In this document: positions 1-38,273 of the stretch, in pieces | Numbering within the stretch: position 1 is the first letter of the stretch | Layout: each line of letters opens with the position of its first letter | From: Bilabrum cf. latius | Taxonomy: Eukaryota | NCBI GenBank assembly: GCA_965178125.1 | Contig: OZ237736.1 | Span: 62,001-126,000, forward strand | Direction of reading: 5' to 3' | DNA length: 64,000 nt | Position numbers and translations under genes: made by a program | Notes under the pieces: generated by a model | What the model was told of the DNA's origin: nothing | Seen by the model: the letters and a program-made list of their open reading frames with translations, nothing else | Database searches by the model: none

Positions 1-1
1 T

Positions 2-2485
2 TCCCCCGAGCCCGAGCAACAGCGGCAACAGGAGGCTGCTGCGGGCGGCAGAACAAAGAAGAGGCAGCGCTCGGCCGCGAAAGGGGTCCGCGGAATTGCG
101 CTCACTGCATCGGAGGAAGACTTTGTGAGCACATCGTTGGCTGGCCTCAGATCTCTGCTGCGGAGGCCCCAGGGCCAGGTGGATGTGCCTAGGCTGTCAG
201 AAGCAGACCCATCGGGTGGTGCAGGCGATGCCGAGCCTGGCGACGGCAAAGGCAACGGCAGCGGTGGGGCGATGCATGCGGTCGCGGGTGGTCACGAGTA
301 GGAGGAGGAAGAAGACGAGGATGCTGTCATGTTTCCGGCACTCTTGCATACCTATCGGTTAGCCCCTGCACGCGGCACCACCACGATGCAGGAGGATATG
401 ACGGCGGGGGAGGCCGGTCGGCTGAGCGCGGGCAAGCTTGTGGTGCAAGGTATCGTGCGGGCCAACCCGGCCCTCTTGGCCGCATTGCAAGGGGCAGAAG
501 TAGAGGGCGCCAACCCAAAGCAGTTCCCCATGGTGGTCCCTCCGCGTCCCTGGGCTGGGGTGAGGGAGGGCGGGTACCTGCGCCTCAAAGTGCCCATCGT
601 GCGCCCCAAGCTCGGCAGCAGGTCCTCGCTGGGAGTGGCAGAGATGGCCGACATGCCGCAGGTGTATGATGCGCTTAACGTGCTGGGCGCGCAGGCCTGG
701 CGGGTGAATCCATTCGTGCATGAAACCATGCGCAGAGCCTGGGAAGGAGGCGGCGGGCTGGCGGACCTGCCTCCGAGGGCAGACCTTGAGCTGCCTGAGC
801 CACCCTCTCCACCTTGTGGCGATTCGGATGCTTCGGAAGATGTCGCCGAGGCATTCAAGGCAGCCAACCAGAAGTGGAGGAGGCAGCTAGGCAGGGTCAA
901 GAGGTGGAATAGCAACCGGCACAGCCTCCGCTGCGACCTCACTCTCAAACTCGCGCAGGCCAAGGCGATGGAGTCGGACGCGTTTTGGTTCCCCTACAAC
1001 ATGGACTTCAGGGGTCGCGTGTATCCAGTGCCGCCGCATCTCAACCACATGGGCTCCGACATTTGCCGCGGACTGGTCCAGTTCGCGAGACCCAAGCAGC
1101 TCGGGGACCGGGGCCTCTACTGGCTCAAGGTGCAGCTCAGCAACCTCATGGGCAACGACAAAGCACCGCTGGACGAGCGGGCGCAGTACGCAGAGGACAA
1201 CCTGGCCAGCGCCATGGACTCCGCGGATCGCCCATTGGATGGGAATGGCTGGTGGCTCGAGGCCGACAGCCCATGGCAGGCCCTTGCAGCGTGCCAAGAG
1301 CTGACTCAAGCGATGCGCCTACACGATCCGACGCAACACAGCTGCCCGCTCCCGGTCCACTAGGACGGCTCCTGCAACGGCTTGCAGCATTACGCCGCGC
1401 TTGGGAGAGACTACGACGGCGCTGTTGCTGTCAACTTGGTCGACGCGGATCGACCGCAGGACGTGTACTCACGGGTGCTCGATCTCGTTATTAAGCGCAT
1501 TGAGAAAGATTCCCATGCTGCCGCTAGTGCTGCCGATAGAACGGCCATGGCGAGGTCCGGTCAAGGTGGCTTTGCTGCTCCAGTGGCAGATGCAGTTGCA
1601 GTGTATGAAGAAGCCAACCGGATCGAGTCGAGTGGCAGCATTAAGCAGGCTTAGAAAGTCCGCAGTGGCATCATCGATGAGTCGACCAACCCAATGCAGC
1701 TCGGAAGCTCAGATTAGCAATGGAAATTCGACAGGGCATGTGCCAAGTTTGTTCGAGGACGTGTCGTCCGGAAAACCATCAAATAGACTGTCATGACCAG
1801 CGTATATGGTGTGACGTTCATTGGAGCTCGGGAGCAGATTCGCAATAGGCTAAGAGAAATGGACTGGTCTTCATACGGAGACGTGGATACAACTGATAAA
1901 CTTGTCTCCGATTCCAGCGCTTATCTGGCTAGAATAACTTTGGAGTGTTTAGGAGAAATGTTCAGCGCAGCAGATTCTATCAAAGACTGGTTGACTACAA
2001 CGGCGCAAACTGTCGCTGCTGTACAGCAGCCAATGACTTGGATCACTCCGTTAGGTTTGCCTGTCGTTCAGCCCTACCGAAGGTCGGAAACAATGACCGT
2101 AAAGACAGCTCTCCAGGATCTCATTATTGCGTCAGAGTAGGATGACTTGCCAGTTTCTGCAAGAAAGCAAGGCACCGCATTTCCACCGAACTATGTGCAT
2201 TCTTTGGATTCAACGCACATGATGATGACAGCACTAGATTGTAATCGAAGGCTAGGTATTGACTTTGCAGCAGTTCATGATAGTTATTGGACTCATGCAG
2301 GCGATATTGATGCAATGAATGCGAGCTTGCGGGAACAATTTGTCAACATGTACAAACGCCCGCTGCTTGAGCGACTGCATTAGTCTCTGAAAGTCCGATT
2401 CCCAAGTTTGCCAATTCGGGACCTTCCTGACAGAGGCGATTTTAATATTGATGAAGTTAAGGCATCGACCTATTTTTTTAGTTGA
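2..2485 (+). CDS. POLRMT: T7/T3-like single-subunit (mitochondrial) RNA polymerase, 5'-truncated by window edge; read with TAG=Gln
   Basis: Track ORFs 329, 1382, 1793 and 2147 share one frame and are separated only by TAG. Motifs: [11 protein letters not shown](TAG)[15 protein letters not shown](TAG)[27 protein letters not shown]-terminal YFFS then TGA at 2483-2485. Confidence 0.96.
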
Positions 2486-3812
2486 TTTGATTGTTCCAAA
2501 TTAAAGCATGTACAGTTTGATTACCTCAAGATTTTACAAATTTTCGCTGCATTCATTGTAGTAAACATTTTTTTAGATTTTCTTATTAACGCTCCAATCA
2601 AGTTGTGTACAACTTACACCAACCACATGTGTTGATCCGTACAAGCATAAAACTAAATATGGAACCTGAGTCGATCAGCTTAGTATATGAGATTATTATA
2701 CGCGAAGAAGCGTGTTTGCTGTGGCACATTGTGAAATGAATAGAAATAGCCCCGACTAAGGGCCGATTAGCCTGACCTTAGCGAGCATTTAGGACAGAAT
2801 GGCCATAAGCCACCTGCACCAGCTCATCTATTAAATATATCGTATGCTACTGATACAACACATACTCCAATGTTGAAATATTTTCACACAATCTATCATG
2901 CTGATGTGGTGCTTTAAGTTGCCCACCTATGCTCTGTTAATTGATAAAAGATGCTGCCAACTAAAGCTCACGAGAGTTCACGTCATGTATCACAAAAATC
3001 TGCAGAACCTTTCTTGAAATAGATTTAAGAGAAACACATATAGTTGCGCTAGTTGAAATTTTCATAAGTTCTATGTCTTTAAGCAAAAAGCATCGACTGA
3101 GATAAAGGTGAAACAAACACCTTGGCTTTGCAAAAATATCGCTATTCATTTGCATTACTAGCTTACAAGGTGTTCTTGTTGCCGCAACATATTATAGAAA
3201 CTTGGATTGAGAATACTTAAACCTTGTGCTTTGTCGATGTATTAATCACTTTCTCAATCTACAAGTAACTGCTTATCGCACATGTACTGTCCCTTCAATT
3301 GCCGCCTGTTGCACTAGCTTTGTGTTACTTCGGGAAGGTAAGAATTGTACGGCTTGGATAGGAACCTGCGGCAAATGATTTCTTACTATATGCAGCCTCT
3401 CAACTAGTAAGCTGGCTTAGTGGTTTTTGCCAACGGGTGATTTATATGTGACTCGTTTAATCTGATACACAGATTCACTTCATGAAAAGATTCGTCGGTA
3501 ACATCAATTGTATTCACTTTAGCTTGGTAACTTGAAGACTAGAGAAAGTGATGTCAATCGACTGGAACAGAGATTCCAAGCAAAACTGAGACTGCATACA
3601 TTTCAATTATTCTGCAATGATGATCTATCCACAAATGATCATTGAATAGCATGTAAAATAAATACTACCATTAATTGTGTGTCGATAATTTATTAATAAT
3701 TACAATATTCAGGTTTCGTCATGTTGATGAAGTAATGCGGTCTGTTATGAGCACCAGCTTAGATGTTAAAAATAGAACTAGTCATTTTGCACACAGGATG
3801 AGATAGTACAAG

Positions 3813-6800
3813 TCATATAAGTTCACCCTATGGTTCAATTCGTGGCCGCTTCCTTGCAGACATCAATGAGCCCTACCCGGGAGACTCGCTTTGGAGCCTC
3901 TTTGCGCCCACGACCGGTTTGGATCGGGAAGGGGTCGCTCGCGATCGATTCTTCCCCTTGTTTCGAAGCTTGGCCAGCTCTTCGCTACCCTCAAAATTCT
4001 TGCAAGATTTGCACGTGCACTCGCCCGGGGAGCACGTTATGCCTTCCTTGAAGCACACGCAATACTTCTTGAGACACTGCGTTCTCGAGCACGTGCAATG
4101 GATGGCCTGTCCAGCCTTCTTCTTGAGGGCAGCCTCGAGCATCTGCGAGCGCTTCGGCTCGAACTCCCGCTTGTTCTCGCACGATGAGTGAGAGCACTTG
4201 CACTGCGGGCCGCAGTAAGCGCTTCGGGCAAAGCAGACGCAATACAGCTTGAGGCACTTGATCCTCGGGCAGTTGCAAGGGGCCATGGAGGCATCGACCG
4301 CCTTGCTGGACGATCCAGCGGCCTAGTTGCTGTGCTGGCTGCGGCCAGTCCCGCCGGACGCGATGGAGCTGCTCGCCCCCCCGAAGCTCCCCGCCACTGA
4401 GCTGGGCCTGGACACCGACGATGCACCGTACGACGATGCGATCGGGTCTGACGGGAAGTCCATGCCCTGCCCCATACCGTGCCGCGCAAGCCTCGCGCTC
4501 AGGCCGCCAGGGCCAGTGCCCAGCATCACCCCGTCGCCTCCCCGCGCCTTTCGCCCCGGTGCCCTCCGCGAGCCCTTGCCCGATGCCCCCGACCTCTTCT
4601 GCGGACTCGAATCCGCACCCTGTTTGCTCCTTCCAGACCGCCGCGACGCCCCGCTGCCCCTGGGCCTATCGCTGCCCGCATCCCTGACGCGTCTCGAGGC
4701 CTTGCGCTGCCTCCGGCCCCCGCCGGTCCCCGAGTCATCGGGAGTACCGGGCTACAGATCGCGGTCCACGACTGACTGCTGCCCAGCGCGCCCTGCTGCA
4801 GTCGCCCCACCCGTCCCCGTGCCTCCGCCCCTCACGGCTGCCCCCGCCCCGCCAGCAGCACCGCTCATCGCCCCACTCGCATGCCCATCCACGTCCCTAC
4901 CGTCAATTTCGTGCCCCAGCTCACCGACATCCCCGCCGTCGCGCTCCTCCAGGCTCACCCCTGCGCCCAGAGGGGGGTCTAGGAGGAGCCCGCCCACCGC
5001 CCCGAACCCATCTCCATGCACCCCCCTCCCCCTCCTCCTCCTCCTCGCCTTTGTATCCCGTGCAAGCAAACCACCCTCCTCACCGTCCTCGTCCTCCACA
5101 TCGCCCTCGTCCTCGTCCTCGTCCTCGCCTCCATCCCCTTCCCCTTCCCCATCGCTGTCCAGCCCGCCCTCGTCCTCATCGCCCCCCAGCACCCCTGTCG
5201 CGCTTCCGCCGCCGGTCCCACCACGAGAATGCAGCATGGGCGTGGCGTAGTCGTCCGACGCCGCGAGCACGCCCCGTCCCCTGGCCCGGCCCCCGCGCCG
5301 GCCCCTGGCCCCCCTGCCCGCCAGCTCCGAGGCCCGCTGCCAGTGTGACGAGGACGCATCGCCCCGGCCCCCCATCAGCGGCGCTTCCGCCAACACCTGC
5401 GCCAGCCGGTCCGCCGCGGACCCGGAGCCGGAATGACCCCGCTGCCTCGCCGCACTGCCGTGCAGTGCACCCCTCTCCCTCCCCCCTCGCCCGGGGCTCA
5501 GGCCGGCCAGCAGCTCCAGCGAAGCCAGCCTCCTGAAGCCCAGCGAGGCCTCCTGCCCCAGCCCAGGCACCCCGGCATACCCCGCCCCGATGGTCGCCTC
5601 CACGCTGTCTGCCACGCTGTCTGGCTCGTCTGTGGCGCGCCCCCCGTTGGGGGTCTACCCGTGCCCGTTTCGCCGCCCGTGCCCATGCCCGCCCGTGCCC
5701 CTCTCTGCCCCCGGACTGAGGGCGTCTCGCATGCGCCTTGAACGCCCGCCCCGGGCGCGCTCTCCTGTGAGCCTGGTGCCGGCGCCCCCCTGTTCCCCAT
5801 GCCCCTGTTCCCCATGGTCCTGAGCTCGCAGTGGAGGCGGCTACAGGCCGCGCGCATCGACTGTGCGGGCCGTTGGCTGTGGGGACCGGAATGCAGCATC
5901 GTCAGCATCGTCAGCATCGCCAGCATCATCCACAGCATCACCGTCCTCTTCGTTCAAGGGGTGGCCAGGCGGGCTGCTGTCCACGCGATCACCCTCCCGA
6001 GCCGCCCCCGCACCGGCGCCACCTCCCTCCCTGCTGCCTGATAATCCAGGCCCCGCCAGCCTGTCCGCACTCGTCACATGGCTCACGAACGGAGAACCCG
6101 AGGCCCCGAGCGAATCAAGAGCCCCAGAGGAACCCGCCCCGAGCGGAGAGCCGACGGGCAGCACGTGCCGACTAGGCGTGTGAGCGGCGCCGAATCCACC
6201 GGTGGAGCTGCTGCTGGTTCGCGAGGCCGCCGCCGGTTCCGCAGGCAGCGCGGAGGTGCCGCGCGCTGCCCGTCGCTTCACTGGCGGAGGGCTCCTCAGC
6301 AATTGCGACTCCGAATCCATGGATGTGCCTCTAGCTGCGACTTCCCCTGCGATCATAAGGGCGGCCGCGTCGCTCGAGCTTCCCTCCCCTGCTGCCGACC
6401 CGCTGCTACTGCTGCCGCTGCTGCTGCTGCTGTGCGAAGCGTCCTGGCTGTGCGAGTGCCATTCTTCCTTTTCGCTGTTCCCTGCATCCGGTGACCCGAT
6501 CCACCGCACCCCCTGCCCCTGCCCTGCCCTTGCAGCCGCAGCCGCGCTCTCATGCGGGCTCCCAGCCGCCGCCAGCAGCCCCACCCCGGGCGCTTGTTCC
6601 CTGGAATCCTCCTCGCTTGCCCCCTCCCCCTCGTCCTCCCCCCCAAACCCGAGAGCCCCCAGCCCCAGCCCCACCGCCCTCCTGGCTGACGCAAAGGCCA
6701 GGAGGGCGCGCGCCTCGGACGAAGAGGACCCCTCCCCCCCTGCCCTCGTGCCATGGGACCCTGCCCCCGGAGGGGACGCAAACGAGGATGACGACGGCGG

Positions 6801-7454
6801 AAGCGGCGCCTGGTCGCCCGGGCGGTGTGATGAGTGCTTGCTCGCTTGCTGTGGAGAGGCACCGGATTCTGCGGTGCTCTGCGAGCTTTCGGGCACTGTC
6901 TGGTGTGACGAGTGCGCCCGGCCCTTCTCTGGCGATTCCGACGAGGAACTCGCCTGCGATGAGGTGGCCATAGTGGCCAGGGTGGCCAAAGTGGACTGCG
7001 ACTGCGGCAGCGACTCCTGCCTCGACCGGCCAGACGACAGCCGTGCCCGCTGCGGCGTGGCCGATGCACCCTGCCCCCTTGCTCCATCCCCGGCCGACGC
7101 CTGGCCCGCCGGTGCAGTCGCGGGCTCAAGAGAAGCAGAGGGCGCGCTGGGTGCCGGCTGTGTCTCAGCGCCTGAACCCCCCCTTCGGGCCCTCCCCGAG
7201 CGGGTTGGGGTCGAGGTGACTGCCGCTGCTGGCCGGTGGGAGCCCGGCGATCCTGGGGGCCGCTGGCGCTGCGGCGTCGGCAGCGATGGTCCTCGCATGG
7301 CGCTGCTCATTCTCCCGTCGTACGCATCTCTCGTTGCTGACGCGGCCACGGACCCGCCGTCGTCCGGCTGCATGGCCATCGCCCCGCGATCTACCGATCC
7401 GAAGATGCCCCGACCGGGGGATTCGAATCCAGGCCTGCGAAGAGAGCACAGCAT
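3813..7454 (-). CDS. CRC/CXC-domain (tesmin/TSO1/LIN54-like) protein with long low-complexity N-terminus, ~1210 aa; start uncertain
   Basis: Track ORFs 5841-7454, 4752-5615, 4323-4529 and 3873-4286 are one frame joined by TAG. Two CXC motifs (CNCPRIKCLKLYCVCFA; CTCSRTQCLKKYCVCFK); ends at TGA 3813-3815. Confidence 0.85.
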
Positions 7455-9082
7455 TAGCAGTCCAAATGAACATGGAAAATAGCGAGTAGACCCTCGAGAA
7501 CGGTCGCTGCTTTGAGGTGGCGTTGCGTCGGAACGGTGGCAGCACAGTCGGAGTGCGAGGCTTTACCCCGCAGTGTAGCAGCATTCTAGCACAAGCAGCT
7601 CACATGAGATGCAAATGATACTGTGGACTGCCCCGCTGAAGAGGGGACCCCATGCCAAGACTCGTGCGGGTAGGATTAGGCGACATTGGCATGCCTACCA
7701 GCTCTGGCGTCATGAGCACAGACGACGACCGTCCCGCATCTGCATCCCTGCTGATATTCTCGACTGGCCGGCGCGCAGGCAGACTTGCCATCTACAGCTA
7801 TGACGCTACTTGATTGGGATTCAGCCTCGCCGCGTGTTGTGCGCGCCTTGGCGGCGTCACTACTGCCTGGCTGGCCTGGTTGCTTGCAACGGCACTAGCT
7901 TGCGAATCCAGCGAATCTACGCTGTTTCGCCTCCCTCGCCTCATGCCAACAATGATAAAAGTATACTTTGGCAGCTACTTACGCGCTGCTTGGCACGTGT
8001 GACTGCAGTGATGCGATAGTTGCCATGACTCTGCTCACCCGACGAAAACGGCGCCGCGCAGCAGCTTTAGCGGAACCAACAAACGGACGGCATGGACAAT
8101 GCAGGCAGGCGATGCAGAGCAAAAACTGTGCTCGACCAGAGTCCCTTGTGCCATGCAAGAGAAACAGAATAAGCACCACCTGCTGCAGCCACCTATATCA
8201 CCAGCTCGAAGCACGGTGGGAGCTAGATCCAGGCTCCAGGCAGTGCAGTGCCCCATCACACGAAGCTGCGACACTGGTAGGCCCATCATCAAACTTGAAC
8301 CCCATGCCCACGCAGCCCCCCACGCACCCGCACAGCCTCTTGTTGGCCTCGGTGAGTACCTGCCCCTCCTTGCCTCCCCCAGCTCGGTTGCCATCGCCAT
8401 GCAGCGCTCGTGCACATGAGAGCAAGGGCCCCGCCGCTGCTCACCCATCAAGGGCCGCGTGGGGTCTGCCGTGGTATACTCTCATCCTCTAATTTTCAAG
8501 CCAGCACGCGATTAAGCTGTAATCGCCACTGCGATCTGGGGGCTATTTGCGGTCGAAATTCGAGTCCCCCGGTCATGTCCGGGGCCCGGTGGCGGTCCGG
8601 CGGGCAGGCGGGCCGGGGTTCCGTTCCGGTTCCGTGCCACAGTGCAGAGCCTGGCAGTGAGGTCTGGCGAGAGTCTGCCTGTACGCTCCAGCTCAGCGTT
8701 CCACAGACAGCGATTCCACAAAGCAGAGGCGCCCAGTAAATAGAAATAGAAGAACTTTCAAGCTGGAAAGCTCATCTTCCCTCTTCCAAAGGGAGCAGGC
8801 CTGATTCACGTCCCGGCAAGAGGTGAGGCTCGCGCACACCGCGAGCAATAGTCCTCGTTGCCCGAGCTTGGCGAGCTCGCTTGGCTGTTTGTGATGGTGT
8901 TTACGATTTGCCTACGAAGTCCTGGATCTTGGCATTCACGGGCCTCGAGTCTTGGCTCCTTTCAGCTTCGACGAGTCTCCCTCGCGCTGCTTTCCGTAAA
9001 TACCCTAACCAACCCTAACACATTCCCCCAACTGTTGTGCTCCGCAGGCCCCCTCTTTGCGGCTCCGAAACACTCCAACCCT

Positions 9083-11167
9083 ATGGAAGATTGTAGCCAC
9101 GGATGGCCTATGACGTCCGCACATACGCCGTCGCTGGCTCCGGTCGCGATGGACAAGAACAGATCGGAAGCGCAGAGGTCCGTGGCGACGGCCGTCGGTG
9201 ACCGCGATGACGATGTCGATACAGTGGTGGCGGTGGTGGGTGGGGCCGCGGCCGCTGGCGGCAACGGCGACGATGGCACGCCTTCGCGAGAGCCAGCCCC
9301 GTCGTCCGTCGCACGCAGGCTGGTGGAGCGCGGCGCCGGCTCCGCGGACGATGGCGACAATGGCGCCTCTGCCGAAGTAGCGGCGGCGATCGCGGCGGCC
9401 CGGGCGGCGGAGAAGGCTGCGCTGGCGGCGATCGAGGCCCAGCTGCAGCGCGCGGTCGCGACGGGCCTGTTGGACCGACGGGCGGCACTGGCTGCGATGA
9501 TGCCGCAGCTAGACGACCCGAGCAGGGCGCCCACGGCCGAGGCGAGAAAGTCGGCTCAGGGGTCCGCTGGGCTGCTGCGCGCCGCCTGGGCCGCCCGGCG
9601 TGCTGTACCACTCGCGAGGCAGCACGCCGCTGCTGCGGGCGAGCGGGCGGCTGATGCTACGGCCGACCTGGTGGATGCCTTGCTGCTGGCACGGCTGGGG
9701 TCCGAGGGCCTCGCGCGCGTCGACGAACGAACGGCTGACGAGGACGGCGGCGGCGCAGCGTCGCGGCGCTTCGGGCGGTTCGCGCCGGCTGGGGTGCCGA
9801 CGGCTCGGGCGTTAGAGGCGGCTCGGCTGGGCCTAGTTGGCACGGCGGCGCTGGCGGAGCTGCGGCGGCTGGACCCGTCGAACGAGGCGGAGGGGCTGCA
9901 GCGCGTGGGGATGGGGGCGGCGGCGTGGGTGGTGGCAGCACAGGGGCCGCAGGTGTCCATGGCGGCGACCACTTCGCAACCTCGCGGCGCTCCGTGCAGT
10001 TCGCGCCGCCGCCGTTTTGGCGGCAGGTAGGAGGGCGCGACAGGAGAGGTGAATCCCGCAGCGGTGGCCGCGACTGTGCTTGCAATCGGTAAGCGACTGG
10101 TTGCGGCTGGCAGCCCGTTGGCCGATCACGCGATCACGGTCGCCGGATTGGGGGAGCTGCTGCAGTCGAAGCGCGGGACGGAGGCGGAGGAGTCGGCAGA
10201 GTGTCTCTCGAAACTTGCAGAGGTAGAATACAGACGAAGATAGCGGGAATCGGCACCGCATCCGCTGCTCGATCGTGCGGACTTGGTGGACGGGCTGGTG
10301 CGTCTGCTGGCGTCGGACAAGGGCAGGGAGGCCGATCATGCCGCGGCATGCCTGGCGAGAATTGCCCGTACTGCCTACTGGCGACGTAGATGGTAGTTTC
10401 GTAACACTTGTTTCATGCGCTGGGGGGATCGGCTGCTGGCATAGATCGGCCTCGATGGACACTATGCGATGGACGGGCTTGACTTTTTCGCCGAGGACTG
10501 CCTGGTGAGTATCGCGCATCGTATTGCATGTGGTCCGTGGCTCGCTCGGCCGGACCCGGACCTGGTAGACAGGCTGGTGCAGCTGCTTGCGTCGGGCGAG
10601 GGCAGGGCGGCCGAGCTCGCCGCGTGGTGCCTGTAGAACATCGCGCAGACAACAGGGTCTTGTCGTCCGCTGGTGGATCGCCCGGGCCTGATGGACGGGC
10701 TGCTGCGGCTGCTGGCATCGGACAAGGGCAAAGAGGCCGAGTTTGCCGCTGGATTCCTACGGACCATCGCCGGGGATAGAGAGACTGTTGGTCGGCCGTA
10801 TTGTCGCCCGGGCGTTGTGGACGGGCTGGCGCGTCTGCTGGCGTCGGACAAGGGCAAAGAGGCCGAGTTCGCCGCGGAATGCCTGTCGAACATGGCCTAC
10901 AGGGGTGAATTCAAGTGCCCGCTGTTCTATCGCGCGGGCGTGGTGGACGGGCTGGTGCGCCTGCTGGCGTCGGACAAGGGCAGGAAGGCCGAGCGCGCCG
11001 CGAAATGCCTGTGGTATTTCGCCGAAACACCCTCGATCCGCCAGCCGATGCGGGAACACAAGGCGCTCGTGGCGGGGGCTCGTGCCCTGGTCCACCGCAC
11101 GACCGCTCCCAATAGTGCCAGGCAAGAGGCCAAGAGCCTATGCCTGAAAGCCGAGATTTTTTGGTGA
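9083..11167 (+). CDS. Armadillo-like repeat protein; start could be 9083 or 9149
   Basis: One frame through five TAGs to TGA 11165-11167. Repeated ~42-aa units of the form (PG)LVDGLVRLLASDKGxEAExAAxCL. Confidence 0.75.
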
Positions 11168-11603
11168 CCGCCGAGGTGAAAATTAGCCCTGCCAACGACA
11201 CCAAGTGAGCCATGCATGGTCGGGCGGACCTCATGGACGAGCTGGTGCGGCTGCTCAGGGAACAGAGCGCTGCGCCTCGGGAGGTAGCGCGATGCTGCCT
11301 CGGGGACCTCTGGGGCCACTGCATAGGATGCAGAGCAACGTATCCACAGGTGCTGGAACAGTGTTAGGTTACGTAACCCGTAACTTTCCGCCATTTTGAG
11401 AAAAGAATAACGACTGAGGCCCAGGAGATCCAGGATGGTGTAACTATCTGCAGCAGGCACCGATCCCGATACCACCAAAACTTGAAGCACCACGCGAGCT
11501 AGGTGCCCCTCTCAGACGCGCAAGTCCCCGAGGGCCTCTCTGCAGTGCACGGCAGTGCCCCATCACGCGAAGCTGCGGCCCATTGAACCCCATACCCCCA
11601 CTT

Positions 11604-14600
11604 TTATGTCCTTTCTTTGCTCCTTTTCTTGCTATTCTTCTTGCCTGACCGGCTCCAGCCCAGCTGCTGCCGCACACGCTCCCTGCCAGCCTCGTCCAGC
11701 CAAGGCGCCCACACGTCCACGATGAGCACCGTCCTCCACCCGTCCCCGCGCACCTGGGCCGCCAGCCTGTCTTTCTCCTGGCTGGGCTCCGCTCTCCTGG
11801 GCAGCCTCACTTCGTGCTCGAACGAGTCGTCGAACACGAAAGCGCTCCCCTCCTCCCACGCACGCCACCGGTCCCCCACCCGGATGGCTGGCACGCCCGG
11901 CCAGCCCTCCTTCAGCAAAAGCGCCGAGCCGTTCGTACCGCCTCCGGACCCGCTCCGCCGCGCCGAAGGGACCTACACTCCTAGGTGCAGCCTCCACCGG
12001 TGGTTGCTGGGACCAGCGTGCGTCCTTACCCTCGCACCGGGTGGCAGGGAACTGACCTCGACCGAGCCGAGCGGAAGGTCGTGCGCGAGACCCCGCCACG
12101 GACTCGGAGCCGCGGCCTTTCCTCCGCTTGGACCACCTTCCTGCGAGTCCACCGGTGGATCGAAGAGCTCCTTGATCGCCTGCCACAGCCGGGGCAGCCA
12201 CTTCTTGGGGTGCGCCTTCCGCGGCCTCCCCTCGTCCGCCACCTTCAGCCAGTCCCTTGCGGTTGCAACCACCATCTCGTGGTTCGGGACGTACTGTTCC
12301 CCATCCAGCCCCACGATGCCCGCGGCACTGGCCACCTGCGCGGTGAACATCCCCGCGAGGTTCGACTCTGCCCCCCTCCTGACCTTGCCCATGGCCACCC
12401 GCCCGTCCCTTCGGATCACCAGCTGCCTCCACGCCCCCCCCGCCGCCAGCCCCTCCTGATCCTCCCTCTGCAGCAGCCTGTAGTGGCCCCTCTCCTTGAG
12501 CGCCTGCTGCCTCGCCTGCTTGGGCCCCTCCAGCACGCCCTGGCCCAGCTCGGCCCCGTGCCTCAGCTCCTCCTTCAATGTCCGCTGCAGGGCTTCCTGC
12601 TTGCTGGGGGCACCTGGAGACCGGAACTCGGCCTCCAGGTGCGTGACAAATGCGCGCAGCCCCTTGAATCGATCGGCTGTGCCCTCCTCCATGGTCTCCA
12701 GCCAGCCGCAGTACGACGAATCGGGCGCCGTGCCCGTCTAGCAGTCCTCCCAATCGACGCTGCCGTGGTGCGCGTCGCCTTGCGCTGCACCTGATCCGAT
12801 CGCATCAGCAAGTCCTTGCGCGGCTCCGAATCCATTTGGTCGACTCCCCTCCACCCTCGGACCCACGTTGCCCCTGACCCCGATCTCCCCTGCTTGCTCG
12901 ATCGCGTCCAGCGGCCACGGGGCCCCCGGCGCCCACTGTTCCCTGGACCCTGCCTTGGGGACTCGCTCCCCCCTGGTGTCCACCAGCAGAGCAGGTCTCT
13001 ACCACACCGAGGGCCATATTCCTGCTGTGACGAGTGGTCCCACCACCGCCCCCGCCTCCCCGCACGCGTCCCCCGCCTCTCGCAGAGCCCTCCCCAGTTC
13101 GTAGGCGGAGCCGCGGGCCCCATGCCAGCCCGCATCCGAGGAAGACTCCGACAAGCGCACCAGTGCAGGCAGCAGACCACCCTCCAGCAGCTACTGTACC
13201 CCGGGTATCCGAGCGGACGCAAGGGGTGATGATCCACCCTGGCACCCAGGCACGCTCACTCTTGCTGACGTCTCGCCCCAGCCCTGTCCTAGCCCACCTG
13301 CACCGCCTGCACCGCCTGCTCCTGCTCCTGCTCCTGCCGCCCCCTCGCCAAGCGCTCTAATGTGCGCCGCGAATAGAGCTGCCGCCGCCATAGGAGCTCT
13401 GGATCTCACCTCGTTGGCGGCAGCGAGCAGCACGCTTCTGGCACCTTCCATGGCGAGCCGCTTGGTCCTTGTCCTGGCGCGCTTGCTCGATTTGTTGCCC
13501 TGTTGCTTTCCCCGGGTGCCCGCTTTATTCTTTTTGCCACCATCCCTCGATGCCTCACCATCCTTATCTCCCTCGTCTTCATCTTCATCGAAGTCCCCCT
13601 CGTCCTCATCCGCAAACCCCGCCGTCTCCAGCCCCCGCTTCCGCATCACCTGGCTCATCACCGAAGGCCCCCTACCCAGGCGGGACCGGTCCTGTCTGTC
13701 CCCCCCTCCGGCCCTCGAGGCGTCTCCACCGTGTGCGGCCTAGGACAGCAGTGACCACGCCTCCTCCAAGTGTTTCTCCTCCTCATCGACACCGCTATCG
13801 CCACCGCTTCCGTCCTCACCACTGGTGCCCACCTGCCCAGCGGTCGACAGTGACCCCAGCTCCTGCAGCGACCGAAGGCGCCTGGCTTCGAAATCGTCCA
13901 TTGAGCGACGGCCCGCCGCAACCTCCACTATCCCAGTTGCGACCGCGTCCACGATGCGGGCCGCCGTCACTTCAGCGCGCTGTTTCGATTCAGCGTCGCT
14001 GGCGAGCGTGCCGTTTGCGCCACCGCCGGGCCCGTCCCCCAGCAGCCCCGCCCGCTTCAGCGAGGCCCACTGCTGTGGCTCCCTACTCGTCACACTGGTC
14101 ACGCAGGCGGCCCAGGAGGCCCAGGCAGCCGCGCTCCGAGCCGACACCCCGAGTGCGGACAGCGCCAGCCTCAGCCGCGGCAGGGCCATGTCGCATCGGC
14201 CCGCGCGCTGCAGTGCAGTGCCCGTGATGGCCAGCACGTGCCAGTCCTGGCTGCCTCCAGTGGAGGCTCCCGCGGGCAGGCCCAGGCCCCGCGCGGATGC
14301 CCTGCCGCTCGCGATCTGCTGCCCCATCCCCATGGCAGTGAGGGGGACCTCCGGCGAGGAGGAGCCGCCGGTGGGCGATATGCTCGTCTGGTTTAGCTTG
14401 CGCGCGGCCGGCTCCGGTGCGATTCCTTGCGTGGCTCCAAGGAGCATCACGGCCGCTGATTCGTACACGAGTGGGATCGTGGGGAGGAAGGCGATCTGCT
14501 CCGGGCTGCGGGACCACGCCATGCCGCTGTCGCGGAGCGCCTCGAAGTGCTTGCGGCGCGCATCGATGGGCCATTCCTTGGGCTTCAAGCTCTTTTGCTT

Positions 14601-15077
14601 CTATTTTCGGTTCGGATTTTTGGACCGCTTGACCCGCCGTTTCCTCTTCACCTTGCGGGTCTTCGGAGTAGGCTTAGACACGGGGGCCTGGGGAGCAGAG
14701 TACCTGTCCGGGTGCCCTAATCTAGCAGCAGACAGACCAAATGCTGCGCCTGCCGCTATGTCGCAACCGTTGCATCCAGCTCGTTCCAGAAAGGATGCGG
14801 CGTTGTGCAGCAAAATGGCCTACACAAAGTTCGTCTTGTCCGCGCCGTCAACGGCAAGCAGACCTTGTTCAGCCTTTTCGTAGTCATCTAGTACAGATAT
14901 TGCTTCTTTCGGAGTCACGCTCCTGCCTGCCTTCTGCGCCGCTACCACTGTTTCGTCCGCGCGGGCATCGGCGTATTGGGCTAGGATCATCGGATCTTTC
15001 GGAGGCTCCTGCTCCTTAACGTCCGTCATCTGACCCAAAGCATGCCAGATAAATATCAAACTCAGTAGCACTTGCAT
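11604..15077 (-). CDS. Aspartyl/asparaginyl beta-hydroxylase-domain (2OG-Fe dioxygenase) protein, ~1157 aa, putative signal peptide
   Basis: Seven track ORFs in one frame joined by TAG. C-terminal THAGPSNHRWRLHLGV...WEEGSAFVFDDSFEHEV...RTVLIVDVW; hydrophobic N-terminus MQVLLSLIFIWHALG; TAA stop. Confidence 0.88.
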
Positions 15078-16508
15078 GGCACACTTGGGGCGTACAGAGC
15101 TTGCGCGTTGTGCTCGAATCTATCCGTGGATTCGCCAACTCCACGTGTGCCACAGTGACGACGATGGCTTCGAGGTCGGGCTCTATATAGTAGAAATAGA
15201 GTTTACTTATATAAAAACTACACACATTTTGGCGGATAACATAAGAGGTCAATATTAACCACTTCACAACATCTTAAGCCGTAGTCCTTCATAATGTCCT
15301 TCACTTGAACATAATAATTTAATAGCTATTTATTCATATATCTACCTAATTTAATACCTTCGCGCCGTTAATGTCTATCTGTTAGACCTTTACTTTACTT
15401 AATCTGTTGAGTGAATCCCTAGCCTAAGTCTTAGGATATGCCCGCCCGAAATTGCGGAAATATATAGTCATTTAAGAATATATGTTCGCAATTCTGGGCG
15501 CGTAGGTGTATTGAGTTTTATATTATGATTTGGTTTTAAGTATCAATTGACATTTACCACTTTAGAAAATAACTAAATAAATACTTAAAGAGATTGACAG
15601 AAGTATTAAAGTCTTTTTAATACTTCCAATGAAAAATTTAAATTAATAAATAAAACTAAACTAATATATCAACTTAATTTATCTCTTTTTTTATTACTTG
15701 TCAATCTATACTTAAATAATTGAATATTTAAATATAACTAGAAGGAGATATTAATCACTTTATAAAGTCTTTTATATGTCATCTCTTCAAAACTTCAAAT
15801 ATAAGGGTATCCCCTTAAAAATACATCCTTTAATCTATCGCCCGAAATTGCGGTAATATTATAGCTATTCAAGATATATTTCCGCAATTCTGGGCGCGTA
15901 GGTGTATTGATTTTTATTTTTCATAATTCTTTAAATATGTTAAAGTCCTTTGTTTGAGTATATGATATAAAGGAATACAAAGCGGGATAACTTAAAAATG
16001 ATAAATGTTTTGACGATGACTTTAAAATGACTCAATGAACTGGTTTATGTCAAGTGTATTACTTTGAAATGATTAATCACTAGATTAAATGGAAAATATA
16101 GGATAATTAAATATGGTATAGTATAATACTAGCGCCCGAAATTGCGGTAATATATTAGGATATTAAGATATATTGTCGCAATTCTGGGCGCGTAGGTGTA
16201 TTGAGTTTTATATTTTGTTAATTTTGACATAGTTATCTTATAGAGGTGTAATTTTGTAATAAAGATATTTCTAGTATGTGCTATATTAAATGTCCAGAAA
16301 TGACGGCCCGAAATTGCGGAAATATATTAGGATATTAAGAGATATTGTCGCAATTCTGGGCGCGTAGGTGTCTTCAATAATTAATAATCAACTACTTCTT
16401 TAGTTTGATTAATTTTTTTGACTTACCGTTCATTTTATTGACCACTTAACGGGATATCACAAAAAGACTTAACCACTTGACGAGATATTTTAAAATAACT
16501 AATAATAA

Positions 16509-17218: not shown

Positions 17219-20017
17219 ATGACGACCGAACACATATCTAACCCTGTTTATTTCTCAATAGCTCACAACTCTAAACAACCACTTATTAAGTCTTGGTAGA
17301 ATTTGGAATCTACTAAACTTATCACCAGAAAGTCAAATCTTAATGTTGGATTACTAACTGGAAGACGTGCAGGTTTCTTTGTCCTTGACTTAGATTGTGA
17401 AAAAGAGAAAAATAAAACTGAATTTCAAAATGGTAAGTTTATTGCGGAATATGGTAGTGTTGATAAGTTTATTCAAGAGATGAATACTTACACTGTCAAG
17501 TCTCCCAATGGATATCATTTGTATTTTAAGTATGAAGAAGAGTTTAGTAAGAGGTCAGTAAATAGAAAAGAACATATAGATGTGATCACAAATGATAGCT
17601 TTATCATGTGTCCTCCTAGCTCTATCAACGGTAAGAAATACGAACTAATACAAAAGACATCCGTGAAAAGAATACCAACTGACGTCAAGATGTTCATACT
17701 ACAAAATATCTATTCACCACAACTTACAGCTGAAGACTACCGTTATATGATTAAACCCGAAGAATACAAACAATACTTATATCAATTAGGTAAAGAGTAT
17801 TATTCTAATTCATATAACTGGCATCTAGTTTGTAGAGCTACAAGTTATATCGCTAAATACTTAAATCCAGTAGATGGTAATAAGGTATATGATATGTTTG
17901 ATGAATGGAGCAAACAAGACGTAGAAAGCTATTAGTCGACTAAGAACAAGATAATTTTTACTCGATTATTAGAAAATTCCACTTTTCAATGTGTTGAATG
18001 GTTCTTTAATTAGTTAGATAGTGAAAAGAAACGACTTAGCCTATATTATCGATACAAGATATTCAAGAATAAAGTAGTCAAGAAAGTCAATTAGAAGATT
18101 GACCGTAGATATTTGACTGCTGACGACAAAGGTCGTTATATTAAATTCTTTAAGAAAGGTATCAACTATGCCGTTAAGTCGGGGGCTGGTTCTGGAAAGA
18201 CAACTGCTGCTAATGATTTATTTAATAGAGTAGATGACAGCTTTTTATCAGTTGTAAGTCGTATTTTATTAGGTAAGCAATAGATGCGTAGTCTTCCAAA
18301 ATCAACTAAATTCTATCAAGACCATAAATACAAATAGGGTGATAGTATTGTTATTACTCCTGAAAGTATTGTTAGTCTTAGCAATTATAACTTTAAGGAT
18401 TATATTGTCTTTTTAGATGAGTTTAATAGTATCTTAGAACACTGTTTAAGTTCTACGACTTTATATGGTAGGCGACCAATGAGTTTCATTACTCTTATTC
18501 GTGCTCTTACCACTTGTAAGTAGTTCATAGTAGCAGATGCTGACTTATCTCAAGATGCTCTATATTTCTTAGAATTATTAAAATTAGATTATCAATATAT
18601 TAGGAATGACAGAAACAGGTTCAAGGGCACCAAAACTGTATTTGTTAATGACGAACAGACTTTTAGAGATGAGTTAATGAAACACAAGAAATTTATGCTT
18701 GCTAGTGATAGTAAGACAAAAGCTGATATAATCAATGAGTTAATTAGTCTTAAAATTATAGATAACGAGAAAGATAAGAAATTAAATAAAATCTTAATAC
18801 TTACAGCAGAAAGCGAAGACAAAGACTATGATATGGATATGTTTGATATCATTATCTTCTCACCTAAAGTCATTTACGGGATAGATAGCACTATGACTAG
18901 ACCAGTCTTTGGTTATTTCAAAGGTCATACTATCACACCTCCCCAAATGGTTCAATAGCTTAACAGATGTAGAAACCCATCACATATCACTATATTTTTT
19001 GATTACTAGAAAGGACGATCTAGCACATATGAAAGTCTTTCACAAGTTAAATCTTTTATGGCTACCTCTTTAAAAGACTACGAAGAATTAGTTAAATTTG
19101 TCAGTGATACATATCCCGACTTCAACGAGGTAGAAGTAGAAGACAAAGTAGAAGAAGAAATGAGCAAAGTTAAAATCATATTCAAGAAACTATATCGTAA
19201 TTATCTTTACAAGGTAGATTGTTATAAGACAAACCCTAAATTACATATGATCAAGTAGTTAATTGATACCGGTTATGACGTGTCTTATGATTTATCTGTT
19301 AAGATCACCAGATGTAAGGATAAAGAAATCAAAGATACCATTAAAGAAAAACAACTTGAAAATTTTGATATTAATTGTCTTAATGTCAAGAAGATCAATA
19401 AATACTTAGACTTAGATGAAGGTGATATTGACAAATACAAAGAGTACTTTATTAATAAAGGTAAGTTATCTAATTTATTTAATTTCAATAAATTCTTTAG
19501 ACAAGATGATAAACACTTACTTGTGAAAGCAATTAATAAAGGCGAGTTTGATATTATCAATGCTAAGTCTAGTTCTAGAAAATTAGTCTTACTTAATAAG
19601 ATGATTGATACTTTGGGTCTTAAAAGAACTAATCTTGATTATAATATCAAAAAGAAAGTATTAGATCAAGACTTAACAGATGAATATAGGACAGTGTATG
19701 ACTGCCAAAGAAGAAGTAAAGTTGACCTATCCACTGATAAAGGTCTCTATTACGAAATACTTAAAGTATATAAATCAATGTTTGGGAAAGACATATTTAT
19801 GACTTGTAAGAAAAAGAAAATTAACTATGATGTAGAATTTAATTAGGATATTATTGATGAGATGGAATATATCTGGTCTAACAAGAAAAAGACTCGTGAA
19901 GTAGATATATTTGTTGATGATGAAGAGGTTCAATTACCCGATGAAGAGATAGAGGTTGACTTGGACCCCGCTTTATTTGTTGATGAGGATAATGATCCAC
20001 TAGAACAACAAAATTAA
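17219..20017 (+). CDS. Primase-polymerase (PrimPol) fused to origin-binding-protein-like (UL9-type) SF2 helicase, ~932 aa
   Basis: N-terminal NVGLLTG...VLDLD...TVKSPNGYHLYF; Walker A KSGAGSGKTT; Walker B FLDEFNS; FSPKVIYGID; QMVQ(TAG)LNRCR. One frame with TAG=Gln. Confidence 0.88.
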
Positions 20018-20430: not shown

Positions 20431-20600
20431 TACTATATATATAGTGGATATTTTTTGGCGAAAGTAATAAACTAGTCTTAAGATATGACCGCCCGAAATT
20501 GCGGTAATATTATAGCTATTTAAGATATATTTCCGCAATTCTGGGCGCGTAGGTGTATTGAATTTTTAAATTTATTTGAATATAATATTTTTTACCTCTT

Positions 20601-22125: not shown

Positions 22126-24012
22126 TCACATATTGAGCTACTTTCTAAGTTTCATAAGTTGAGCCTTAGTTAATTTCTTCCCTCCACTGGTCAAAAGACT
22201 TCCACCACTAGTTAAAAGACCTGCTCCAACACGTTCAGCTAAGTCATTCACTTCATCGGGTAAGTATTCACTTACTGCTTGTCTTGCTTTACGAAGAGCT
22301 GGTTTCACTTTATCAAATTTAGCTTTAGCTTTCTTTCCAAAGTCTACCACTTTACGTCCTAAGTCTTTAGCTTTGTTAAAGGCTCTCTTAAAGAATTGCA
22401 TCACTTTACGACGTCTTCCACCTAATACGTTCTTAGAGTAGTTCATATTAGAAAATGTATAATTAGAAGGTTTAGCCACTTTCTCAGGGTCAACAGAAGC
22501 ACTATCTTCACGCCATTCAATAGCGGCACCTCTAGTATTCACGATAATCTTGTCATAGGCACAGAATAATTGAGCTTTATATCCTTGAGACATAGCAGCG
22601 GTTGGGGGTTCGTCATAGGCTACTTGAACACGAATACTAATAGGGTCAGCACTGTTGCTTTGAATAGTTTCAGGAGTATTTAAATCACTAAGTCTAAATA
22701 AGAGCCAGCCATTAGATCCGTATACTTTAGAAGCACCTCCTACAGTTACATCTAAGTTAGTAAAAGAAGCATACTCACTATTTGATCCATTTCTTTCACT
22801 AAGTCTAAAGATATCGTCTTGTGTAAGTTCTCCTAAAATAGAACCCTAAGACCTAAGTTGTACTTTAATATTGTTAATGGCAAGTGTTCTATGAGGTGTA
22901 CCACTAGCTTCTCCATATTGAGAATCAACTAAGCACACAGCAAACCAAGAAGGGCAAGTCTAAAGTTGATAATTATTAAAAGTATGGACACCTTTAGTAG
23001 TGATAGGATTATCAAGTTTAGGCTCTTCATGTAGTTCAAAGTCAACAGAGTTGTAGAATATTTGTTTAGGTACTTTCTTCAAGAAGTTAAGATGAGTATT
23101 ATAAGTAAAGACATCAAAATGGATCTAGCAATCGGATAAAGCAAAAGCATAGTCTCCATTCCAATCACTTGAAGTATTAAACATCTTATCAATTAAGTTA
23201 TTTCTCATTTGTAAATTAACATTTAATTGTGGATGATCAACAAAAGGTCTAGCATTACCACCCATCATATATTGGAAAGGACGTGCAAGAAGTGCTTCAG
23301 AGATTTCAATATGTAATTTGACATAGTCTTGAGTTGGTGTTACATTATTATTAGGTATTGGAGTATTAGCATCCACTTTTTCAAGTGTTGCGCGGTAATT
23401 CTTACCAGGACCGCGAGCTTCCATAATACTATCATCATTTACACCCCATTGAAGGACAGACTTAGCAAGACCATTTGCGGCAGTATTAAATTCCCAAGTG
23501 TTATCAGCCTAAAAGACAGGACTTATTTGTGCTAGAGTGGCACGGTCAAGACTTCTAGCTATTAAATTGACTAATTGATAAGGTGATGAACTACGAGATA
23601 AGTCTCCCATTTTAACTGTGGAACTTGTGATCATTGAATTTACCATAAATGTAGAAGGGGCTACCTTATTGACGATATCAGTTTGAGCTACTGCTCCATT
23701 GTTCTAACTATCATAGATGTATACGTCAAATGAAACTCTTAGACGGGGATTACTGTCAGTCATTCCTTGATTTGATGGCACTACGAAAGTATAATTACTT
23801 CTAAATGCATTAGTTGCGCTAGAGTTACCACCATCTGGTTCGTAGTGGTTTTGAAACTTGGAAGAGTATCCAAGGGTAGTTCCGAGAGTAATAGCTTGAC
23901 TATCACCCACAAAGTTGAGTTTTTCGTCAGCTATTTGAGTTACTGGTAGTTCTGAGACGTCATCTACGACTTTGCTTTGTGCTGCTACAGGTACATTATC
24001 CATATCAGACAT
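22126..24012 (-). CDS. Virophage major capsid protein, ~628 aa
   Basis: Three track ORFs in one frame. PSWFAVC...LAINNIKVQL...GELTQDDIFRLSERNGS resembles the virophage MCP C-terminal jelly roll; GG-containing basic tail; next to penton. Confidence 0.88.
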
Positions 24013-25909: not shown

Positions 25910-26977
25910 TTAATATACGAACATCTATTTAGGACAAGTGATAAAATTATAAGTCTTATTAATACATAGCCATCTATTACCTTCTCCAAACAATTTATAA
26001 ACACGATTTATAAGACTTGCATCAAATCCTAAATATGCTTTCATTAAATATTTGCTAAATTTCCATAGATTTCTCTTAAATAAAATAATATTATGACTTT
26101 CCATGACTATTGACCTAGTATTCGCATAATCATTCGTTAAATGACTTATAACTATCATATTTGTTGAGCTATGTCTTCCAACTTCACCTATACGCTTAAT
26201 TAAGAATAACGCTCTCTACTTTTTATCACCGTTTAAGGCTTCATAATCATCAAATACCACCACAGAAGGACCCTATTTTGCCCATTCTTCATACAATGGA
26301 GTAGTGGTAAATGATGCCTTTGTCTTGTCTTTACTTGTTGGTTTCATTCTTTCTATCTCTATCTCTCTTTTAATTAATTCATGAGGTTCTAATGACTTCT
26401 TTTCCTACCTAAAGAATATCTTTTCTTCTTTGTATTTCCTCATTAAGTCATCATAACTATCGTTTCTATCTACTGCTACTAATTTATCAATATCAATAAA
26501 ATTACCATATTTTAAATAAGTTGGATTTGTTTCCTGTACTGGTGTAATGACTAAAACCCTCTTCTTTGGAATGAACATATGATAATACTTGAGTAAAGAC
26601 TTAGCAATATAAGACTTACCAGCACCAGCCTAACCACTTAAATAGTGTATTTGTCTTTTGGTCTCATCATCAAAGAATGGGACTATTTCAAACTAACTCT
26701 TATCATCTATTCTTAACTCGTTAGTCTTTCTAACTAGTTTTTTATTTCCATTCACTAGCTTACACATCTCTTCACGTAATGCTTTTTTATTCTTCTCATA
26801 TTTAATTGCTCTCTTTCCATAATACTCTTCAAGTAAATCATCACTTATATCTTCTGGAGTTATGACTTTTTCCCCTACATCTTCACTAAAAAAGACGCTT
26901 TTGTTCCTCTTCTTGTGCTTGTATTCTCTTAAAGCAACTAAATGACTATTTGGTATTTCATCGTATGATAATGACAT
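25910..26977 (-). CDS. A32/FtsK-HerA-like genome packaging ATPase, 355 aa
   Basis: Walker A SG(TAG)AGAGKS, Walker B VVFDDYE, GRH, IVISH, TRSIVMESH. Confidence 0.9.
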
Positions 26978-34422: not shown

Positions 34423-36078
34423 TTATCTCTATCTATCAGAATAGTCTTTCGCAAGTGGTCGTATTTGGTCTTTCCCATAATCCTATTCTAATTTCTTACG
34501 GGTAATCCATTCATTAAACTTATTAGAATATCCCTTATATTTGACTAAGTATTCAATAAGTCTATCTTTATTTTGTCTTTTATCTAAAAACTTCTCTATT
34601 GTGTCTGGTTCTACTTCTAAACCTTCAACATTATCAATTTCAGGCTCTTCACTTTCCTTGTCTATGTCATCATTTACCTTATCTTCGTGTTCTACATTGT
34701 CTATTTTCTATAACTGTGAAGCATTAAAGAATCCAGTAAGAGGTTCTCCCTCTTTGTCCATTACTTTATATTTAATCCTCTACTTAGGATTTCTTGGTTT
34801 GGTCTTCTATCTAACAGTGAAGACTTCTCTAGACCAATTAAATAAATTTCCTTTAAACTTGTTCTTCTCAAGTAATACTCTAACTCTATCCCCTACATTA
34901 AGATCTTTATCATTCCCGTCGAAATTATTGGATAATTTCTTATTTTCAATTCTAGATCTAACTACTTCTAAATTTTCGGGTTTCATTGCTTCTAGTGGAG
35001 ACATTCCTATAGTGTTGTGTTTTCTCTTATTATATGCTCTTACTAGTCTCTATAATGACGTATGCCAAACACCATCACTGTCATTCTTAATAGCAAAGTC
35101 TTTTCTAATCTATTCTTTTATAGTCCTATTAAGTCTTTCAACTGCACCATTAGACTATGGATTTCCTGCGATGGTGAATAGTGGTTTTATGTCATTGTCA
35201 TTCATAAATTTAATATATGCCTCTTTATTAAACTCATTATCACTTAACATAACAGTCGGTTTTCTCCAATTAGGTTTCTTAAATAGTTTCTTCATCTCAC
35301 GAATTATATTAACTAATGTCTTATCTTTTAATGAAATACTCCATAGGTATTTTGTGAATATATCCATTATATTTAATATCCAATTATAGCCGTCATTAGT
35401 GTCTGAATACTTTTGCATGTCTATTAAGTCCAATGCGTAAATTGAGAAAGGCTTAGTAGGTACAAAAGAACTTACTGCTGACTGTTTAGGTCGTTTTTTG
35501 GTCAATTGGTGGAGCATCTAGTTATTTAACCACTTTTCTACTTGTCGTCTTTTAATACGTTTATCTTTTTGTCTAGCTAGGTCATATAACGCATCACGAC
35601 TGACTACATTACCTTCTTCATAATATAGTTTCTTTAATATTGGTTTATAATTAAATTTGTCTTTGTCGTCCTCATCTTCTACTTCAATTAATTTACCGGT
35701 TGGTTTATTAAGTTTTTTCGTCTAAGCTTTAGTCATCTTATAAAAAAGACGAACTAGGTTAGACTATTGAACGCTAAAATGAACACGACTCACTAAGTTA
35801 TATAAAGTGAAATAGTCTCCATCCTTCTATATTGAGTTAATTACCCCACCTCTTCTAAATAGTGGCTTTCCCTTGATATTACTTACATAAGATACATAAG
35901 AATATAAAGGTATTTTTTTAATACTTGCTTTGGTAGTTGGTACCTCTTCAAATCCTTTATCAAGTAGTCCCTTAATAGTGGCTTCTAAATTATCACTATC
36001 TTTTTGATTTTTTGTCGGTTCATCACCATACGTGTAAGATATTTTACCTCTAGTGTATGTCTTGCCTTTATTAGTCAT
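34423..36078 (-). CDS. Retroviral-type (rve) DDE integrase with C-terminal chromodomain, ~551 aa
   Basis: ALDLIDM, MDIFTKY, LSDNEF, NGAVERLNRTIK; chromodomain EYLVKYKGYSNKFNEW. Confidence 0.9.
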
Positions 36079-38090: not shown

Positions 38091-38273
38091 GAAGGTTGAA
38101 CAACCTTTTTTATTATAAATTGTCGTGTTTGTTATTGGTAGGGACACGGCTATATTGGAGTGGCCACGCTGTCGTGTGTAGCAGGGTACGAACCGTGCTT
38201 CCAGCATTGACACGGGTGGAATCCCGCATTGAAGAGCATTTCAATGTTTCATTTGTGGTCTCAGTCAATCCAA

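Follow-up and report, generated by a model that had tools for sequence, protein, structure and literature searches.

UAA and UAG are nearly always reassigned together. The nuclear lineages that separate UAG from UAA amount to a handful, with no stramenopile among them in the excerpts of PMC11687900 used here. The code variant in which UAG alone is read as glutamine (Gln) while UAA is still a stop is already known from Iotanema spirale, Protocruzia tuzeti and two phyllopharyngean ciliates, Hartmannula sinica and Trochilia petrani (PMC11687900; PMC5304391), and to explain such cases PMC5304391, as excerpted, proposes a tRNA-Gln(CUA) combined with an altered eRF1, a T32G change of eRF1 being reported there for Iotanema. 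On the viral side, elements that follow the variant code of their host are already known from Streblomastix strix, for which the authors took the shared code as a sign of long association, according to the part of PMC10120064 at hand. Here, we analysed a stretch of 64,000 nt (positions 62,001–126,000 of the forward strand of contig OZ237736.1, assembly GCA_965178125.1), called the window below, in whose own coordinates all positions are given. Its first 15 kb hold four host nuclear genes of 58–70% GC, and from about 15.2 kb on it consists of two divergent virophage-like elements of about 30% GC. UAG is a frequent, ordinary sense codon of these nuclear genes, and this code is shared by three or more related organisms and by both of the virophage-like elements that lie beside the host genes. 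In this organism UAG is very probably read as Gln, with termination restricted to UAA and UGA (as in NCBI table 15), a reading derived from sequence comparisons, to which we give a probability of about 0.93. It is also the reading of the original prediction, and it is supported by conserved-column statistics, by exchanges of TAG for CAR codons with three related organisms and by the purging of TAA and TGA only.

The host genes and their parts are as follows (CDS, coding sequence; UTR, untranslated region; ORF, open reading frame).

2–2485, + strand: gene 1, last 827 codons of a nuclear gene for a phage-type (mitochondrial) RNA polymerase (Pfam RNA_pol, 1.8e-153), its 5′ part cut off by the start of the window; seven in-frame TAGs (299, 1361, 1652, 1715, 1784, 2138 and 2381), TGA stop
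3813–7454, − strand: gene 2, protein of low complexity that has two tesmin/TSO1 CXC domains in its C-terminal part (Pfam TCR, 3.4e-18); six TAGs, TGA stop
8642–11167, + strand: gene 3, single ORF with TAG as sense
8823–9047, + strand: 225-nt GT..AG intron in the 5′ UTR of gene 3 (8820 is joined to 9046, cut at +2, in a contig of sequencing run X6)
9083–11167, + strand: gene 3, CDS of an armadillo-repeat protein (Pfam Arm, 8e-06); five in-frame TAGs (10028, 10241, 10394, 10442 and 10634), TGA stop
11604–15077, − strand: gene 4, protein of 1157 amino acids with a C-terminal Asp/Asn beta-hydroxylase domain (Pfam Asp_Arg_Hydrox, 2.7e-17); seven TAGs, TAA stop

Under the standard code or table 11, the first 15 kb breaks into ORF fragments only. 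The four host genes become single ORFs, ending in TAA or TGA, only if TAG is taken as sense, exactly as had been predicted. Together they comprise 3,891 codons with 25 in-frame TAGs and neither an internal TAA nor an internal TGA, whereas their two off-frames contain 112 TGAs (about 56 per frame) and 47 TAGs. Since TGA occurs more than 100 times off frame, and since no internal TGA or TAA stands against the 25 TAGs in frame, TGA and TAA have been purged from these genes and TAG has not. TAG accounts for 25 of the 167 Gln-type codons; about six TAAs would be expected if TAA were sense at the TAG:CAG ratio, and none is observed. One count had to be corrected. The gene 3 ORF holds eight TAGs, of which the five listed above are indeed coding; the first three (8741, 8747 and 8849) fall in the 5′ UTR or its intron according to the join in the X6 contig, and one of these, which had been counted as coding, is removed by the 225-nt intron. 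The CDS is taken to start at 9083 because this is the first ATG after the 8820–9046 join. The GT..AG joint would fit a spliced transcript, and we do not build upon it.

The original prediction had confined the variant code to the host genes. It holds there, but the restriction was too narrow, as the virophage-like elements follow the same code. The elements and the two genes that are most informative in this respect are the following.

15200–36200 (ends approximate), no strand: virophage-like element A, about 30% GC (Pfam, ORFs under two codes, GC profile)
17219–20017: primase-helicase of element A (Pfam Prim-Pol)
37000–64000 (left end approximate, runs off the window), no strand: virophage-like element B (Pfam Prim-Pol, PriCT_2, V18-19, rve)
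40188–42965: primase-helicase of element B, 20 TAGs (Pfam Prim-Pol, PriCT_2)

The 44 viral ORFs of at least 100 amino acids (12,550 codons) contain 179 TAG, 324 CAA and 33 CAG codons and no TAA; TAG thus represents one third of the Gln codons of the elements and exceeds CAG about five-fold. These ORFs end in TAA (33) or TGA (11). The absence of TAA from 12,550 codons at about 30% GC, where a sense TAA would abound, is a far stronger test that UAA is not a sense codon. Moreover, the largest viral ORF under the standard code has 370 amino acids, whereas reading TAG as sense extends the primase-helicases to 932 and 925 amino acids, matching the 933 and 929 amino acids of their best full-length homologs.

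We then consider which amino acid UAG specifies. The two polymerase sites quoted earlier in favour of Gln are exact: TAG 1361–1363 is Q454 in PVH-Q-DG and TAG 1784–1786 is Q595 in K-Q-TVMT, and both are conserved Gln positions, standing opposite Q in the yeast and human mitochondrial RNA polymerases. Among 120 homologs, the column of TAG454 holds Q in 82 and M in 34, and that of TAG595 holds Q in 104 and R in 16. For the primase-helicases, compared with 149 representatives, TAG columns are found in which Q occupies 139 of 149, 144 of 146, 146 of 146 and 82 of 149 positions.

Related organisms exchange TAG and Gln codons at such sites. A 511-residue polymerase protein from another assembly (P0005), 96% identical to that of the window, carries Q at the positions of window TAG100 and TAG454, and its ORF stops directly before window TAG551. 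The ORF of an 81% relative of the polymerase (P0395) ends directly before the conserved Gln of a PWQ motif (residue 426), and that of a 74% relative of gene 4 (P0125) ends directly before window TAG629; a search for short gene 4 fragments gave only two matches, neither of which runs across a TAG. The most informative relative is a metagenome contig, referred to here as L001.

L001 (Ga0136560_1005035, 1–5879), ORF at 673–4323: polymerase with 20 in-frame TAGs in 1216 codons, no TAA or TGA, TGA stop

The L001 polymerase is 72% identical to gene 1, and a CXC gene lies convergent beside it, in the same arrangement as in the window. In the codon alignment with gene 1, seven of the 17 TAG columns pair TAG with CAA or CAG, two pair TAG with TAG and eight pair it with other residues. 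The alignment of the CXC gene with gene 2 has seven TAG columns, two of which pair TAG with CAG; both are in the conserved domain, with the L001 TAGs opposite CAGs of the window. L001 uses the same code with a GC content of only about 50%, so that the code does not depend on a GC content as high as that of the window host.

TAG columns were also scored as a whole, and a random alignment of TAG to residues, for which we checked, is not what they display: they favour Gln in both protein families. The two polymerases (window and L001) provide 16 usable TAG columns, for which the background-corrected log-odds, measured against 119 homologs, are +19.7 for Q and −15.5 for the next residue, H; in a control on the polymerases, the codons of Q, E, K, R, L and S are each assigned to the right residue. 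Over the 28 TAG columns of the primase-helicases, the corresponding values are +17.1 for Q and −14.6 for K. For this second family, an uncorrected log-likelihood had ranked K over Q, the homologs being K-rich, and it was replaced by the background-corrected version. Every TAG column in which one residue reaches at least 90% is a Gln column (three in the primase-helicases and two in the polymerases).

Several observations nevertheless weigh against the reading of UAG as Gln. Conserved columns are available for only two of the seven TAGs of gene 1, the other five being variable or gapped. In the L001 alignments, eight of the 17 polymerase columns and five of the seven CXC columns with TAG face a residue that is not Gln (G, E, I, N, T, A, K or P); those of the polymerase correspond to its variable parts. 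The CAA or CAG coding of the Q residues in P0005 derives from a standard-code gene call and not from its DNA. For some TAGs of the primase-helicases, the prevailing residue of the column is I/L, D or R (R occupying 92 of 134 positions in one case). When elements A and B are compared with each other, 12 of 95 TAG positions stand opposite Q or TAG, which is above the 3.9% background and weak, and at 22–33% identity this comparison is too divergent to decide. Neither the window nor L001 yielded a tRNA gene (ARAGORN, and Rfam at the gathering score; 70 kb in all), and the eRF1 gene does not lie within the window. Finally, only six host-type gene ends are known, four in the window and two in L001, of which five are TGA and one is TAA.

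With so few ends, UAG might also work as a terminator at some host gene ends, and TAG1209 of gene 2, which lies only four codons ahead of the TGA, is where this could be suspected. We regard it as unlikely. The residues beyond TAG1209 (ELI) are conserved in L001 (ELL), no ORF requires TAG as its end, and the ends of the polymerases and of the primase-helicases coincide with those of their homologs at TGA or TAA, the PDB alignments of gene 1 extending to the conserved C-terminal YFFS. Along 41 viral ORFs TAG is evenly distributed, the last TAG lying within 15 codons of the end in nine of them compared with 8.2 expected; this even spread, with no enrichment near the ends, gives no sign of TAG termination. 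The two other codons, on the other hand, are kept as stops. TAA is absent in frame from the 3,891 host and 12,550 viral codons and terminates gene 4 and 33 of the 44 viral ORFs, whereas UGA terminates genes 1–3, both L001 genes and 11 viral ORFs and is absent in frame from the host genes.

The lack of a tRNA-Gln(CUA) gene in the 70 kb at hand also allows a second explanation, a little less probable again, in which the code is standard and UAG is efficiently read through by a near-cognate tRNA-Gln(CUG) together with a weakened eRF1, in the absence of any tRNA-Gln(CUA). Read-through by near-cognate tRNA-Gln is described in canonical-code organisms in the excerpts of PMC13192750. However, the L001 polymerase gene carries 20 TAGs in 1216 codons and the element B primase-helicase gene 20 in 925, a density at which read-through would require near-complete suppression at each site. 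TAG is, in addition, equally common in frame and off frame, and no gene ends in it.

A third possibility is that the TAGs are not translated as such: they would stem from errors in sequencing or from the decay of pseudogenes, or they would be edited to CAG in the RNA or removed with tiny introns. Nothing speaks positively for it; the RNA or DNA nature of three of the runs used for comparison (X6–X8) is a guess only (‘RNA?’, with X6 also ‘probably DNA’; X5 is DNA). We compared contigs from four additional runs (X5–X8), which belong to three other studies, over positions 1–15200. Of the 25 TAG sites, the listed contig pieces span 7 in X5, 19 in X6, 8 in X7 and 5 in X8, and over the genes no differing letter or gap is listed, so that the check for CAG at the TAG sites came out in favour of TAG. 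Missing cover by X6–X8 over 2536–3549 was not counted as evidence. Moreover, decay would also have brought TAA and TGA into the reading frames, where none is found, the frame is maintained over all 25 sites, the 72% identical ortholog has TAG at the same or neighbouring Gln sites and the sole joint observed is in a 5′ UTR. Untranslated TAGs are therefore very improbable. The idea that UAG is sense but stands for another residue, for which other reassignments offer Glu, Lys, Leu and Tyr as examples, can draw on the many TAGs in variable K-, E-, D- and N-rich columns and is just as improbable, the corrected log-odds placing Q more than 30 units above any alternative in both data sets and every TAG column with one residue at 90% or above being Gln.

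If UAG is indeed read as Gln, decoding would be carried out by a dedicated tRNA-Gln(CUA), a single mutation away from tRNA-Gln(CUG). Such a tRNA would pair with UAG and not with UAA, and eRF1 would no longer recognize UAG. The giant virus needed by these virophages would have to tolerate or share the code.

With regard to the surroundings of the host genes, the spacer between the convergent genes 1 and 2 (2486–3812) measures 1,327 nt at 30–41% GC; its counterpart in L001 (4324–4488) has only 165 nt, and the window spacer probably contains an AT-rich insertion. The X6 and X7 contigs end at 2523 and 2511, where the DNA run X5 continues, which is at most a weak hint at a transcript end.

The original prediction also proposed a Cafeteria-like bicosoecid as the host. 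The best named match of the polymerase is that of Cafeteria, a full 1405-residue standard-code gene model that is 46% identical, and no NCBI protein more than 46% identical to the polymerase was found in either length class. In a FastTree phylogeny, the window polymerase and P0005 stand beside Cafeteria at a support of 0.57, within a clade (0.997) that is sister to the ochrophytes. This placement suggests that the host is probably a stramenopile near, and not in, Cafeteria. A weak grouping with Cafeteria is thus retained from the proposal, and the term ‘bicosoecid’ is unproven. Cafeteria burkhardae itself was rejected as the host because the Cafeteria polymerase is only 46% identical, which is not the near-identity expected of C. 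burkhardae or C. roenbergensis. Halocafeteria seosinensis was rejected as well, its genome having 46.8% GC according to the part of the preprint used (10.64898/2026.06.25.734631), compared with 58–70% in the window genes; the terms ‘genetic code’, UAG, TAG and ‘stop codon’ are absent from the text of two Halocafeteria preprints.

The two elements carry further genes, some of which were assigned by domain matches and some by paralogy, and element B carries an insert.

22126–24012: major capsid protein (MCP) of element A (Pfam MCP_V20_C, 3.2e-07)
25910–26977: ATPase of element A (Pfam AAA)
34423–36078: integrase of element A with rve and chromo domains (Pfam rve/Chromo)
48934–50823: MCP-like ORF of element B (paralogy with element A)
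50895–51848: Sputnik V18/19-type penton of element B (V18-19, 5.3e-07)
52769–53869: ATPase-like ORF of element B
57874–59894, − strand: GC-rich (about 60%) insert of about 2 kb in element B (repeat families at 99% identity, GC profile)
60063–61220: integrase of element B (Pfam rve)

The primase-helicase, MCP, ATPase and integrase ORFs of element A all require TAG as sense. Virophage-type capsid genes are present in both elements (MCP_V20_C in A, Sputnik V18/19 in B), their capsid partner ORFs are paralogs and the A/B paralogs are 22–33% identical. An AAA ATPase-like ORF, Prim-Pol primase-helicases and rve integrases are also present, and no protease was identified among the part of the ORFs that was searched. 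Inverted repeats in the elements are copies of an intergenic repeat and do not define clear termini, and element B runs off the window. A scan of IMG/VR with both capsid proteins gave no related contig.

The intergenic repeat of element A, of 60–100 nt, occurs in at least 12 direct and many inverted copies between 15444 and 34420 (e.g. at 20491–20590), mostly between genes, and has a palindromic core, GCCCGAAATTGCGG...CCGCAATTCTGGGC; it could be a promoter/terminator module or a small mobile repeat. The intergenic repeat of element B (...AAAGTTCCATCACTTTA...), found at 37040–37223, 39864–40045 and 47495–47678, is unlike that of element A. Where the two elements meet, or close to that point, lies a 1.8 kb stretch of about 50% GC (37200–39000), with ORFs at 37629–38090 and 38274–38993 that have no Pfam match. 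A tandem array of 20-nt units (48412–48564) stands upstream of the element B capsid gene, and at the end of the window (62587–64000) two ORFs, 62587–63384 and 63474–63998, which are 69% identical, are made of 75-nt (25-residue) tandem repeats.

The predicted Ngaro elements fared less well than the code. Ngaro retrotransposons have repeats in the order A1-[ORFs]-B1A2B2, as described in the excerpted text of PMC8547959, and on the minus strand the insert in element B has this Ngaro-type split direct order, A1-[internal]-B1A2B2, formed by two repeat families (D10 and D12) at 99% identity. The split direct repeats are thus present, but the insert is only about 2 kb long, compared with about 6 kb, and lacks the expected ORFs: its two long frames match no Pfam family at E ≤ 0.01, and no match to a reverse transcriptase (RT), an RNase H or a tyrosine recombinase (YR) was obtained. 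It is at best a deleted retrotransposon copy.

A search of the full-text literature, not made by organism name and excluding supplements such as the Codetta table of PMC12220804, returned neither a stramenopile with a reassigned nuclear UAG nor a virophage with such a code. We lean, by a narrow balance, towards the view that an unreported clade of GC-rich heterotrophic stramenopiles, near Cafeteria but outside it, independently split UAG from UAA, and that its virophages have long evolved under that code, as their five-fold TAG:CAG ratio may suggest. If this is true, these would be the first virophages shown with a variant code, and their helper giant viruses would be locked into the same code, which would act as a host-range barrier in the trio of host, giant virus and virophage. 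Such virophages would be a natural system in which to see whether a variant code restricts the exchange of viruses between hosts. A further independent case would also be a data point on how eRF1 and tRNA-Gln evolve discrimination between UAG and UAA. The code-sharing relatives stand at 96%, 81% and 72% identity; those at about 50% have gene calls that are full-length under the standard code. In practice, standard-code annotation would fragment most genes of this genome and of its virophages.

How does this locus compare with the systems already described, as far as the excerpts of the cited papers go? It is like the known UAG-only cases in that UAG is Gln and UAA a stop, and the evidence is of the same kind, namely in-frame UAG at conserved Gln positions. 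Those cases are a fornicate and ciliates, whereas here the polymerase belongs to the Cafeteria clade that is sister to the ochrophyte stramenopiles. Furthermore, UGA is a working stop here, at five of six host-type ends, whereas in H. sinica and T. petrani 93.5–100% of the C-terminal alignments ended at UAA (PMC11687900).

Cafeteria burkhardae and its endogenous mavirus-like elements (EMALEs; PMC8547959) resemble the window in their architecture: a GC-rich host, AT-rich integrated virophages with rve integrases and, interrupting a virophage, a GC-rich insert whose repeats follow the order A1-[ORFs]-B1A2B2. They differ in that the polymerase of C. burkhardae has a standard-code gene model, and the excerpts of PMC8547959 contain no remark on a variant code. 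Its Ngaro elements are also about 6 kb long, whereas the insert here has about 2 kb without an RT, RNase H or YR match in Pfam.

The viral elements of Streblomastix strix (PMC10120064) are alike in that integrated capsid genes follow the stop-codon reassignment of their host. There, however, TAA and TAG are both Gln and the elements cluster with parabasalid capsid genes, whereas here TAG alone is reassigned and the capsid genes are of the Sputnik type (MCP_V20_C and V18-19). Finally, the crAss-like and other gut phages of ‘code 15’ (PMC9523058) have, like the elements described here, viral genes full of in-frame TAGs read as Gln. These phages differ in code from their standard-code hosts, whereas in the window the virus and the host share theirs.

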